Of a stretch of DNA of 64,000 nt, positions 18,443-21,400 are shown piece after piece. Positions within the stretch are counted from its first letter, which is position 1. Each line of letters starts with the position of its first letter. A program made the position numbers. The stretch comes from Escherichia coli O127:H6 str. E2348/69 (GTDB lineage: Bacteria; Pseudomonadota; Gammaproteobacteria; Enterobacterales; Enterobacteriaceae), in assembly GCF_000026545.1 (NCBI RefSeq), contig NC_011601.1; one strand, given 5' to 3'.

Positions 18443-21400
18443 TGAATGACACCAGCTTCGAAAACTGCATTAAGTGCACCGTCTGCACCACCGCCTGCCC
18501 GGTGAGCCGGGTGAATCCGGGTTATCCGGGGCCAAAACAAGCCGGGCCGGATGGCGAGCGTCTGCGTTTAAAAGATGGCGCACTGTATGACGAGGCGCTG
18601 AAATATTGCATCAACTGCAAACGTTGTGAAGTCGCCTGCCCGTCCGATGTGAAGATTGGCGATATTATCCAGCGCGCGCGGGCGAAATATGACACCACAC
18701 GCCCGTCGCTGCGTAATTTTGTGTTGAGTCATACCGACCTGATGGGTAGCGTTTCCACGCCGTTCGCACCCATCGTCAACACCGCTACCTCGCTGAAACC
18801 GGTGCGGCAGTTGCTTGATGCGGCGTTAAAAATCGACCACCGTCGCACGCTACCGAAATACTCCTTCGGTACGTTCCGTCGCTGGTATCGCAGCGTGGCG
18901 GCTCAGCAAGCGCAGTATAAAGACCAGGTCGCTTTCTTTCACGGCTGCTTCGTTAACTACAACCATCCGCAGCTAGGCAAAGATTTAATTAAAGTGCTCA
19001 ACGCGATGGGTACCGGCGTACAACTGCTCAGCAAAGAAAAATGCTGCGGCGTACCGCTGATCGCCAACGGTTTTACCGATAAAGCACGCAAACAGGCAAT
19101 TACGAATGTAGAGTCGATCCGCGAAGCAGTGGGAGTAAAAGGCATTCCGGTGATTGCCACCTCCTCAACGTGTACATTTGCCCTGCGCGACGAATACCCG
19201 GAAGTGCTGAATGTCGACAACAAAGGCTTGCGCGATCATATCGAACTGGCGACCCGCTGGCTGTGGCGCAAGCTGGACGAAGGCAAAACGTTACCGCTGA
19301 AACCGCTGCCGCTGAAAGTGGTTTATCACACTCCGTGCCATATGGAAAAAATGGGCTGGACGCTCTACACCCTGGAGCTGTTGCGTAAAATCCCGGGGCT
19401 TGAGTTAACGGTGCTGGATTCCCAGTGCTGCGGTATTGCGGGAACTTACGGTTTCAAAAAAGAGAACTACCCCACTTCACAAGCCATCGGCGCACCACTG
19501 TTCCGCCAGATAGAAGAGAGCGGCGCAGATCTGGTGGTCACCGACTGCGAAACCTGCAAATGGCAGATTGAGATGTCCACAAGTCTTCGCTGCGAACATC
19601 CGATTACGCTGCTGGCACAGGCGCTGGCTTAAACTCCTTTCTGATGCCCGGTAAGCATGTTGTTACCGGGCATTTTTGCGTACACGATTCCGTGCCCAAT
19701 GTATGCGTTGCAACGCAGTGAAAATTCCTCTGAAAACGTCTCGCAAAGGCTGAAACTGGCAGATGTCAAAGGTCTGGGATAACCGTAATGTCGCGTCATC
19801 ATAAATATCAGGTGACGGACAACCATGACCGAATCAACAACCTCCTCCCCGCATGATGCGGTGTTTAAAACCTTTATGTTCACACCCGAAACCGCACGGG
19901 ATTTTCTGGAAATACATCTACCAGAGCCGCTGCGCAAGCTTTGCAACCTGCAAACCTTACGCCTGGAACCCACCAGTTTTATTGAAAAAAGTTTACGCGC
20001 TTACTACTCGGATGTTTTGTGGTCCGTGGAAACCAGCGAGGGTGACGGCTATATCTACTGCGTGATTGAACATCAAAGCTCTGCAGAAAAGAATATGGCT
20101 TTTCGGCTAATGCGCTATGCCACTGCCGCCATGCAGCGTCACCTGGATAAAGGCTATGACAGAGTTCCGCTGGTGGTGCCATTGCTGTTTTATCATGGCG
20201 AAGCCTCGCCCTACCCGTACTCACTCAACTGGCTGGATGAGTTTGACGATCCGCAACTTGCCCGGCAGTTGTACACCGAAGCTTTTCCGTTGGTGGATAT
20301 CACCATCGTACCTGACGATGAGATCATGCAACATCGACGTATAGCTCTGCTGGAACTGATTCAAAAGCATATTCGCGACCGCGATTTAATCGGTATGGTC
20401 GACAGGATCACCACGCTTTTGGTTAGAGGCTTCACTAATGACAGCCAGCTACAAACACTGTTTAATTATCTGCTGCAATGCGGCGATACCTCCCGTTTCA
20501 CCCGCTTTATTCAGGAGATTGCCGAACGTTCACCACTACAAAAGGAGATATTAATGACTATTGCTGAACGGCTACGGCAGGAAGGACATCAAATTGGCTG
20601 GCAGGAAGGTAAGATTGAAGGCTGGCAAGAAGGTAAATTAGAAGGTTTGCAGGAAGGCATGCATGAGCAAGCCATTAAAATTGCCTTGCGCATGCTGGAG
20701 CAGGGCTTTGAACGTGAGATTGTGCTGGCGGCAACCCAACTCACTGATGCTGATATTCCGAACTGTCATTAAAAGGAGAGATTGATGACTATTGCTGAAC
20801 GGCTACGGCAGGAAGGACATCAAATTGGCTGGCAGGAAGGTAAGATTGAAGGCTGGCAAGAAGGTAAATTAGAAGGTTTGCAGGAAAGCATGCATGAACA
20901 AGCCATTAAAATTGCTTTGCGCATGCTGGAGCAGGGCATTGATCGTGACCAGGTGCTCGCGGCCACTCAGCTAAGCGAAACCGATCTGGCAGCAAAAAAC
21001 CACTAATTAACACAGGCCCACAGCCGATCCCCATGGGCCTTTGATATCAATAACTACCTTTTACGCGTGGCCCATTTTTGCCTGATTTAAACATCGCCAG
21101 TCGTTGATCCAGGGCATCGCTGTAGAGCATCGTGTCAACGCCAACAGCGACAAAGTTCGCTCCCCACGCCAGGCATTGCTGCGCCATATCAGGAGCCACA
21201 GCCAGAAAACCAGCCGCTTTACCCGCAGCACGGATCCGCCGAATGCTGGTTTCAATAATTCGCTGCACTTCCGGGTGCCCGGCGTTATCCGGGTAGCCCA
21301 ACGACGCAGAAAGATCCGCAGGTCCAATAAACACGCCATCAATCCCTTCGACATCGAGGATTTCGTCCAGGTTATCCAGTGCCGTTTTACTTTCCACCTG

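Follow-up and report, generated by a model that had tools for sequence, protein, structure and literature searches.

The tandem rpnE–ypaA locus of Escherichia coli E2348/69: a probably homogenised shared part joined to two presumably old tails

The tandem arrangement of rpnE and ypaA (rpnE_S / rpnE_Ss) is described in the parts drawn on here of two earlier reports (Meydan et al. 2019, bioRxiv 10.1101/520783; Zhong et al. 2023, PNAS, PMC10400941), so that the duplication itself is already known. In K-12, internal initiation within rpnE and the resulting small protein have been shown by experiment, and SPA-tagged YpaA has been detected in MG1655. The same parts of Zhong et al. (PMC10400941) describe strain variation in the number of the four-residue repeats, and report toxicity and SOS induction by RpnL, blocked by the cognate RpnS, for RpnA, RpnB, RpnC and RpnP2, RpnE not being among them. 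As far as these parts go, YpaA counts as a second copy that hardly differs from the first (“98% identical”), with no mention of a break in the tail (Zhong et al. 2023, PMC10400941; Meydan et al. 2019, 10.1101/520783); later literature on Rpn tails was searched for and none was found. The two small proteins of K-12 share 46 identical residues over 61 aligned positions.

Comparable arrangements occur elsewhere in the family. The pair rpnC–rpnC_Ss and other downstream RpnS copies, in the portion of Zhong et al. (2023) that treats them, are likewise tandem duplicates of the small-protein module with separate origins. As an analogue, that portion also names the specificity subunits of type I restriction enzymes with their TAEL repeat variation (EcoR124I/II; PMC10400941), in which the count of four-residue repeats in a long helix likewise fixes the specificity of interaction; they differ in protein family and function, and the parallel is an analogy only. 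A two-unit array in Rahnella bruchi holds the same module duplicated downstream of an rpn gene, again with a separate origin.

Tandem and dispersed duplicates may undergo concerted evolution by partial gene conversion, as do tufA and tufB in enterobacteria. The rpnE–ypaA locus resembles such systems in the high identity and shared polymorphism within a tract, the sharp drop at the end of the tract, and the apparent deletion by crossover between repeats. However, the tract is only about 170 bp long here and contains a slippage-prone repeat array, and, because one copy is the 3' terminus of a longer gene, a conversion would rewrite toxin and antitoxin at once.

Gene content of the locus

The window, a stretch of 64,000 nucleotides, matches E. 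coli E2348/69, and the gene order at the locus is glpC–rpnE–ypaA–yfaU. It resembles K-12 in the locus and its synteny, the internal Shine-Dalgarno (SD) sequence and ATG, the repeat variation and the presence of both tail types, with the 21-residue tail A on rpnE and, in K-12, FDRDQVLAATQLSEADLAANNH on ypaA. The features are as follows.

19825–20772, plus strand: rpnE (yfaD), an ORF of 315 aa for full-length RpnE_L, a PD-(D/E)XK “recombination-promoting nuclease” and presumed toxin
20554–20772, plus strand: internal in-frame ORF for RpnE_S, 72 aa, presumed intragenic antitoxin, with AAGGAG at 20542–20547 and ATG at 20554
20540–20706, plus strand: shared part X of unit 1 (SD, start codon, helix 1 with four-residue repeats, helix 2 to ...RMLEQG), 97% identical to 20771–20937
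20596–20657, plus strand: four-residue (12/24-bp) repeat array of unit 1, Tandem Repeats Finder period 24, 2.6 copies
20707–20772, plus strand: tail A, 21 residues and stop, which gives RpnE_L and RpnE_S their turn, last helix and C-terminal tail; identity to tail B, 58.6%
20771–20937, plus strand: shared part X of unit 2 (SD containing GGAG at 20775–20778, start codon ATG at 20785, repeat-bearing helix 1 and helix 2), from sequence and alignment
20785–21006, plus strand: ypaA (rpnE_Ss), an ORF of 73 aa, the free-standing second small-protein copy, its site as in K-12 ypaA
20827–20886, plus strand: four-residue repeat array of unit 2 (Tandem Repeats Finder), in E2348/69 with the same repeats, equally many, as unit 1
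20938–21006, plus strand: tail B (IDRDQVLAATQLSETDLAAKNH and stop), the end of ypaA; apparently the ancestral Escherichia rpnE tail, here a rare allele
21014–21040, unstranded: hairpin rich in G+C, lying between ypaA and yfaU, which are convergent; the sole terminator-like site in 19600–21150

Residues 8–209 of RpnE_L match PF04754 (“Transposase_31”, the N-terminal PD-(D/E)XK domain) with an E value of 4.5e-88 in Pfam, and the whole protein scores 712.6 bits against the NCBIfam RpnE equivalog NF007418, whose cut-off is 583. The roles of RpnE_L as toxin and RpnE_S as antitoxin in E2348/69 are presumed from the family. The rpnE stretch shows 100% identity to the chromosome of E2348/69, where RefSeq lists the gene as a transposase of the ISNCY family; in many other E. 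coli genomes it carries the name rpnE.

Both units open with AAAAGGAGAnATTnATG, which comprises a Shine-Dalgarno sequence and an ATG. The internal SD and ATG of rpnE are kept in 18 of 18 E. coli loci and in five other Escherichia species, and because of this conservation RpnE_S is probably made by internal initiation in E2348/69. The ypaA ORF begins 12 nt past the rpnE stop; its product covers profile positions 244–308 of NF007418 and agrees with RpnE_S at 50 of 51 N-terminal residues. The 231-bp unit is thus exactly the translation-ready module of RpnE_S, and its tandem copy is ypaA (RpnE_Ss). In Pfam, YpaA gave only a sub-threshold match to RepB_primase_C (19 bits versus a cut-off of 26.1), which was dropped as noise; weak FliH matches in NCBIfam reflect the E/G/K-rich repeats and not homology.

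A scan of 19600–21150 found no terminator-like site between rpnE and ypaA, and because of this, ypaA is likely to be co-transcribed with rpnE/rpnE_S. A consensus scan of the same interval found no sigma-70 promoter, so that expression of ypaA in E2348/69 is presumed from the K-12 data. The internal promoter reported for rpn genes was likewise not located in 19600–21150.

The identity step and exchange between the copies

Alignment of the two units (20540–20773 against 20771–21006, MAFFT) revealed five mismatches in columns 1–167, corresponding to 97.0% identity, whereas 29 of the 70 columns from 168 to 237 are mismatched or gapped, corresponding to 58.6% identity with one 3-bp indel included. 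The maximum-likelihood change point falls at column 167 (20706 for unit 1, 20937 for unit 2), with a log-likelihood ratio of 27.5 versus a maximum of 12.2 among 5000 shuffles of the mismatch vector; 0 of the 5000 permutations were as strong, and Fisher's P is 3e-13. The drop after near-identity over the first 170 bp or so to a far lower identity over the last 60 bp or so, as reported in the first-pass annotation, is therefore real, and the tail translations given there are reproduced exactly. The 231-bp tandem stands as well, with unit 1 at 20540–20770, except that the frame of the second unit runs to a stop at 21004–21006, which places its end at 21006 instead of 21003. The same step is seen at synonymous sites, where the pS between the units is 0.066 for X versus 0.73 for the tails (P 8e-6).

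The anomaly is more aptly viewed in reverse, as a 5' segment of 167 bp that would be held alike by exchange, followed by tails that would represent two old haplotypes. The comparison across strains used 18 E. coli loci picked from BLAST tables without phylogenetic control, several of which share haplotypes; in its 13 two-copy strains, the 105 non-repeat nucleotides of X show no fixed difference between the units and five sites polymorphic in both, whereas the tails of the same strains show 20 fixed differences and no shared polymorphism (X versus tails, Fisher P 2.5e-5). The mean distance between unit 1 and unit 2 is the same within a strain (4.08) as between strains (4.06). Altogether, the signs of partial concerted evolution were found, namely polymorphism common to both units with no fixed difference within the tract, fixed differences beyond its end, and lineage-specific co-variation of the copies. 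Given no fixed difference in X versus 20 in the tails, the identity step is, as judged from these alignments, a gene-conversion boundary.

Moreover, a 48-nt indel and two SNPs separate unit 1 of E2348/69 from unit 1 in Esc29 and SK1144, two relatives that are otherwise nearly identical to it. Since all three changes run toward the unit 2 state, they indicate a probable conversion across the unit 1 repeat array in E2348/69. The GWQEGK(I/L)EG repeats, which had earlier been proposed to promote slippage, do vary in number by strain, with a variable stretch of 3–35 residues. E2348/69 carries four repeats in each unit, whereas the numbers are unequal between the units in K-12 and in the 12 other two-copy loci examined; we infer that YpaA can pair with RpnE_L in E2348/69, where the repeat numbers match.

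Distribution of the tails and origin of tail A

Tail A lies only at the rpnE|ypaA junction, in ~59% of 5426 complete E. coli genomes (about 3221) and in E. fergusonii. Tail B is single and adjoins yfaU in 5409 of the 5426, so that copy number does vary across strains, as the comparison suggested in the first-pass annotation was meant to reveal. The tail B allele of E2348/69 is rare, with just three genomes at least 99% identical, and in this it is unlike the K-12 system. Within each type the tails hardly vary across E. coli, and tail A hardly varies in E. fergusonii either. Tail B is present in each of the five single-copy E. coli that were sampled and in four further Escherichia species; its orthologues are the tails of E. 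albertii, of E. whittamii and of two unnamed species of the genus. Its pS against other Escherichia (0.25–0.43) is in step with that of the N-terminal domain (0.13–0.40). By these comparisons, tail B represents the ancestral state of the rpnE tail in Escherichia.

In the single-copy strain EcN, the flanks and N-terminal domain are 100% identical to those of the two-copy window, and the X region is a hybrid that resembles unit 1 at its 5' end and unit 2 at its 3' end, the pattern expected from crossing-over between the units. Chimeras of tails A and B exist and are rare. Across X and tail A, the two-copy locus of E. fergusonii, also with tails A and B, shows no mismatch to one E. coli strain of group B2, compared to 6–10% in the flanks. 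This near-identity shows transfer between species, which means that the E. fergusonii locus cannot date the duplication; dating by that species was dropped, its X and tail A being identical to the E. coli B2 allele. A test of the age of tails A and B gave P 0.015 against the E. albertii N-terminal domain and P 0.15 against the E. albertii tail, and, because a tail offers only about 15 synonymous sites, an age older than the genus is not firmly established. Were the duplication ancient, each of the four other Escherichia species would have lost the second copy.

We propose, with a probability of roughly 0.7, that this is the known rpnE–ypaA locus with X homogenised between the copies and with tails that are two old versions, almost never mixing. 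The gene rpnE would encode a toxic PD-(D/E)XK nuclease, RpnE_L, whose last 72 codons would also be translated alone to give the antitoxin RpnE_S. The first 167 bp would be continually swapped between copies and strains by gene conversion and unequal crossing-over, and this exchange would hold X about 97% alike with polymorphisms in common. The last 66–69 bp, encoding the turn, the last helix and the C-terminal tail, would form two old haplotypes that recombine almost never, tail A being the strongly diverged version confined to the full-length gene of two-copy loci. A crossover between the two X regions would delete tail A and fuse rpnE to tail B, which would account for the presence of tail B in all single-copy strains; the two-copy arrangement could be restored by homologous recombination with a donor that carries it. 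Tail A itself may derive from an old duplication followed by asymmetric divergence, or from capture of a piece of an unsampled rpn relative, of which we slightly favour the former.

An alternative, which we regard as unlikely, is that tail A was imported. Another Rpn gene, either a paralogue from the same genome or one on incoming DNA, would have replaced the last ~66 bp of rpnE, or built the two-copy locus, through gene conversion or illegitimate recombination. The distance between tails A and B equals that of rpnE tails from those of Citrobacter, Salmonella and rpnB (pS 0.6–0.9), as expected of a foreign piece; the other Escherichia species are without tail A, and the rpnE–ypaA locus does swap DNA across species. 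One Rpn tail of Klebsiella spallanzanii, GFERELVRAVCQLSDDDM, scores higher against tail A than against tail B, but its DNA is not close. Nor did any search reveal a donor. In 5426 E. coli genomes (blastn, word 11), neither a second locus for tail A nor tail B outside the rpnE locus was found. Among 80 Rpn loci of other species (Escherichia, Citrobacter, Klebsiella, Salmonella, Serratia, Pantoea, Pectobacterium and others), tblastn found no relative of tail A, the best match being 62% over 21 residues. A tblastn search of plasmids and phages with the tails gave nothing above 60% except mis-filed E. coli chromosomes. In a database of 5.8 billion proteins, searched with the small protein (matches of at most 72 aa) and with full-length RpnE, every protein carrying tail A is an E. 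coli RpnE-like protein, and no donor was found. The recombination with a paralogous Rpn tail first suggested for this locus thus lacks its partner, no other Rpn paralogue being closer to the 3' segment, and by these comparisons a paralogue donor of tail A is not supported. The “plasmid” matches to the tails are multi-megabase records, that is, chromosomes filed as plasmids.

Far less probable is a recent tandem duplication followed by rapid positive or diversifying selection, for example by a phage factor, on the extreme C-terminus of one copy. The Rpn small proteins are hypervariable and tied to phage defence, all four within-type polymorphisms of tail A are non-synonymous, and tail A strays further from the family consensus than tail B does. 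However, selection at the protein level does not saturate synonymous sites, which differ at about 10.7 of 14.7 in the tails versus 2 of 30.3 upstream, and the near-invariance within each type speaks against ongoing rapid change. Tail A differs from tail B with a pN of 0.30, giving a dN/dS of about 0.14–0.4, below 1. Saturated synonymous sites together with this ratio argue against recent positive selection as well as decay, so that selection on the extreme C-terminus, the other cause initially suggested, does not account for a step from a pS of 0.07 to 0.73.

That ypaA is a decaying pseudogene fragment of rpnE with neutral 3' erosion, as the PGAP annotation implies by the RefSeq label “hypothetical protein, incomplete, missing N-terminus”, can hardly be the case, for its tail B appears ancestral and common to functional single-copy rpnE genes, its ORF, SD and ATG are intact in E. 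fergusonii as well as in all 14 E. coli loci with two copies, its first 167 bp would not escape decay, and the protein is detected in K-12. The early view that the divergence is not simple decay holds, with a real step and both reading frames intact in every two-copy locus examined, and the label warns that annotation pipelines can call a real small protein a pseudogene fragment.

Possible specificity modules and the predicted small protein

The modest new point is that RpnE_S and YpaA are not near-identical, since the pairing helix would be homogenised and the last helix and tail would be ancient and unmixed. If the last helix plays a part in recognising the toxin, in binding DNA or in being recognised by phage factors, the natural combinations of A or B tails with different repeat numbers would be ready-made variants for probing the basis of antitoxin specificity in this family, and the matched repeats of E2348/69 versus the mismatched ones of K-12 offer a natural contrast.

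More speculatively, and we hold it doubtful, ypaA could be, beyond a spare antitoxin, a permanent donor cassette through which the pairing of the RpnE toxin and antitoxin is reprogrammed, the tails being alternative specificity modules in cis. Conversion by ypaA would rewrite the repeat number, a determinant of pairing specificity, in RpnE_L and RpnE_S together, as appears to have occurred in the E2348/69 lineage, and a crossover with ypaA would change the entire last helix and tail from A to B at once. The pressure might come from phage factors aimed at the C-terminal helix-turn-helix.

The reference for the C-terminal HTH_Rpn_C domain is RpnA_S (PDB 7TH0), a three-helix bundle. The AlphaFold (AF2) model of the small protein, with a pLDDT of 79.8, has helices at 3–49 and 54–61, helices 1 and 2 being merged, and in this model the identity break is predicted to fall in the loop ahead of the last helix. 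Structural similarity search using Foldseek gave 7TH0 as the best PDB match, which is weak (E 0.058), and phmmer against 7TH0 gave an E value of 0.12. In addition, PF27070 (HTH_Rpn_C) is a precomputed annotation on identical and near-identical proteins.

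The rpnE–ypaA locus and the identity step

The region 19640-21060 is 100% identical to the chromosome of E. coli E2348/69, and the locus comprises the following features:

ending at 19632: glpC
19825-20772: 315-aa ORF (rpnE)
20785-21006: 73-aa ORF (ypaA)
21014-21040: hairpin
beyond the hairpin: yfaU, convergent

The 315-aa protein contains the PF04754 YhgA-like nuclease domain (E = 4.5e-88) and scores 712.6 bits against the NCBIfam RpnE equivalog (cut-off 583), and the 73-aa ORF lies at the same position as K-12 ypaA. According to Zhong et al. (2023, PMC10400941), Rpn genes are toxin–antitoxin systems, in which the toxin is the full-length nuclease, RpnL, and the antitoxin, RpnS, is its C-terminal domain produced from an internal start. 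They show that ypaA ("rpnE_Ss") is expressed and duplicates RpnE_S, that it can be lost via deletion or fusion, and that the number of 4-residue repeats differs between strains. The internal start in rpnE was mapped by Meydan et al. (2019, bioRxiv 10.1101/520783), who found its product similar to YpaA. The duplicated 231 bp therefore make up an antitoxin module equipped for its own translation. The duplication itself is already known, as rpnE–ypaA; what is new here is its description as a mosaic. The Meydan et al. preprint gives 98% identity between the internal RpnE product and YpaA, compared to 46/61 aligned positions in the K-12 sequences used here (L001), the shortfall being due to the tail and one repeat. 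In L001, L004, L005, L009-L011 and L094-L101, PGAP calls ypaA a pseudogene fragment ("hypothetical protein; incomplete; missing N-terminus") and rpnE an "ISNCY family transposase", whereas in the literature the ypaA product is a translated small protein and the rpnE product a nuclease, not a transposase. The records of several single-copy strains (L008 1428-1741, similarly H17-H21 and H23) present yfaU as a truncated pseudogene ("aldolase/citrate lyase family protein, incomplete").

Alignment of 20540-20773 (unit 1, the 3' end of rpnE) against 20771-21006 (unit 2, ypaA) revealed 5 mismatches in the first 167 columns (the shared part, X), whereas in the last 70 there are 29 columns that mismatch or contain a gap, one 3-bp indel among them. 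A two-rate change-point model placed the break at column 167 (unit 1, 20706; unit 2, 20937), with a log-likelihood ratio of 27.5 (0/5000 permutations above 12.2; Fisher's P = 3e-13). The near-identity followed by 3' divergence reported in the first-pass annotation is thus confirmed, and its translations of both units agree exactly with ours. Each unit starts with AAAAGGAGAnATTnATG; in translation, an N-terminal stretch leads into the 4-residue repeats, detected by Tandem Repeats Finder as 24-bp arrays at 20596-20657 and 20827-20886. Upstream of the break, the amino-acid sequences of the units differ only by Gly35Ser (GGC to AGC, 20887), located in the final 4-residue repeat of YpaA.

Exchange between the two units

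We compared the window with 18 further E. coli loci, 13 two-copy and 5 single-copy. All 14 two-copy loci, the window included, carry tail A (20707-20772 in the window) on rpnE, with the consensus FEREIVLA[AT]TQL[TS]DADIPN[CG][HY], and tail B (20938-21006) on the downstream ORF, with the consensus [IF]DRD[QL]VLAATQLSE[AT]DLAA[NK]NH. All 5 single-copy loci have tail B. Among 5426 complete E. coli genomes, tail A (76 bp, at least 90% identity) was found in ~3221, only at the rpnE|ypaA junction, and tail B as one copy adjoining yfaU in 5409.

In a comparison of 13 two-copy strains, no difference between the units was fixed in the 105 bases of X outside the repeats, and five sites there were polymorphic in both; in the tails, 20 differences were fixed and no polymorphism was shared (P = 2.5e-5). 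The mean distance between unit 1 and unit 2 was equal within strains (4.08) and between strains (4.06). In E2348/69, the two units have identical repeat arrays. The strains closest to it are Esc29, whose flanks and N-terminal domain match the window at 100% identity, and SK1144; unit 1 of both differs from that of E2348/69 by an additional 48 nt and two SNPs. At all three differences E2348/69 has the unit 2 state while keeping the flanking unit 1 markers, so a conversion tract spans the repeats. Moreover, single-copy strain EcN, with flanks identical to the window, possesses a hybrid X that is unit 1-like at its 5' end and unit 2-like at its 3' end, which is what a crossover between the units would leave.

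The absence of fixed differences in X, the fixed differences in the tails, the conversion tract and the EcN hybrid therefore mark the step as the point where a tract of continuing exchange ends, and we put the probability of this gene-conversion boundary account at about 0.7. Exchange between the units would keep X alike, with tails A and B lying outside the tract. Rare chimeras show that this boundary is occasionally crossed. One is the single-copy rpnE of the divergent "E. coli" lineage SCPM-O-B-8794 (L016 3374-3460; 92% identity to the window in glpC), whose tail FELEIVLATTQLT|EADLAANNH is A-like in its first 32 nt and B-like in the remainder. A second chimera, the database protein P0027 (FER|DQVLAATQLSEADLAANNH), differs in crossover point.

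Age and origin of the tails

Differences between unit 1 and unit 2 were counted by the Nei-Gojobori method.

Synonymous and nonsynonymous differences between the two units
Region; codons; synonymous differences/sites; pS; pN
Shared part X; 51; 2/30.3; 0.066; 0.008
Tails A vs B; 21; 10.7/14.7; 0.73; 0.30

The synonymous contrast between X and the tails is significant (P = 8e-6). Since synonymous sites of the tails are saturated and dN/dS is below 1, recent duplication followed by positive selection is ruled out. Tail B differs from other Escherichia species by a pS of 0.25-0.43, in step with the N-terminal domain (0.13-0.40), and the A-B distance equals that of rpnE to its Citrobacter, Salmonella or rpnB relatives. 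With only ~15 synonymous sites available, the data hint at, but do not establish, a split that predates the genus: the A-B divergence gave P = 0.015 when compared with the N-terminal domain of E. albertii and 0.15 when compared with its tail.

When one genome per species was scanned, single-copy rpnE with tail B was found in E. whittamii, E. albertii and two unnamed Escherichia species. E. fergusonii has the A/B two-copy arrangement. X and tail A are identical between E. fergusonii (L092 1743-1988) and E. coli NRG 857C (L098 1185-1364), with flanks 6-10% apart and 8/540 differences in the rpnE 3' half; the E. fergusonii locus therefore documents recent interspecies exchange, not age. Altogether, the locus combines a homogenised pairing helix with two ancient tails, which recombine only very rarely and of which tail B is the ancestral one.

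For tail A, an origin by old duplication is slightly more likely than acquisition from an unsampled relative. No second tail A locus was found in the 5426 E. coli genomes, and plasmids and phages gave no relevant match. In a collection of 5.8 billion proteins, all tail A proteins were E. coli RpnE-like, and the tails of all other homologues except that of Klebsiella spallanzanii scored higher against B than A. Among 80 Rpn loci of other genera, the best match to tail A was the K. spallanzanii tail (62% over 21 residues). This tail, GFERELVRAVCQLSDDDM (L019 3359-3421), is the only non-E. coli one favouring A over B (49 vs 33); its DNA is not close, so it is at most a weak lead. The first-pass annotation rightly set aside simple decay and pointed to slippage-prone repeats and variable copy number, but its mechanisms did not hold: conversion from a paralogous Rpn gene finds no better-matching sequence outside rpnE in the genomes, loci and protein collection searched, and selection on the extreme C-terminus did not create the step, given the tails' pS of 0.73 and dN/dS below 1.

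The E2348/69 tail B allele (SETDLAAKNH; 20938-21006) is rare, occurring at 99% identity or more over 20931-21010 in 3/5426 E. coli genomes, most genomes being 90-95% identical to it there. Its GCA-AAA (Ala-Lys) resembles E. albertii (AAKPH), and from its sequence the allele may be old or introgressed.

Predicted structure, pairing and expression

An AlphaFold model built on 38 RpnS sequences (pLDDT 79.8) has predicted helices at residues 3-49 and 54-61, placing the break, after residue 51, at a putative loop that leads into the last helix. Among PDB folds, RpnA_S (7TH0) matches best, albeit weakly (E = 0.058; sequence match E = 0.12). The last-helix core VLAATQL is common to both tails, which differ in the N-cap and the final nine residues.

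For RpnC, Zhong et al. report that RpnL is blocked only by an RpnS of equal repeat number. Among the 14 two-copy E. coli loci and E. fergusonii, only E2348/69 has equal repeat numbers in both units; extrapolating the RpnC rule, we infer that YpaA could pair with the full-length nuclease RpnE_L in E2348/69, and not in most other strains. The unit start precedes the ATG by only 14 nt and no terminator-like site was found between rpnE and ypaA, which suggests that ypaA is probably co-transcribed with rpnE and rpnE_S.

In E. whittamii (L012 2477-3439), the rpnE N-terminal frame is broken, with the ORF ending at 3031, and the 77-aa RpnS frame (3206-3439) is intact; this RpnS may be an orphan antitoxin. 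In addition, Rahnella bruchi (L052 3230-3903) has an independent two-unit array of RpnS modules, starting at 3230 and 3652, with different tails and repeat numbers.
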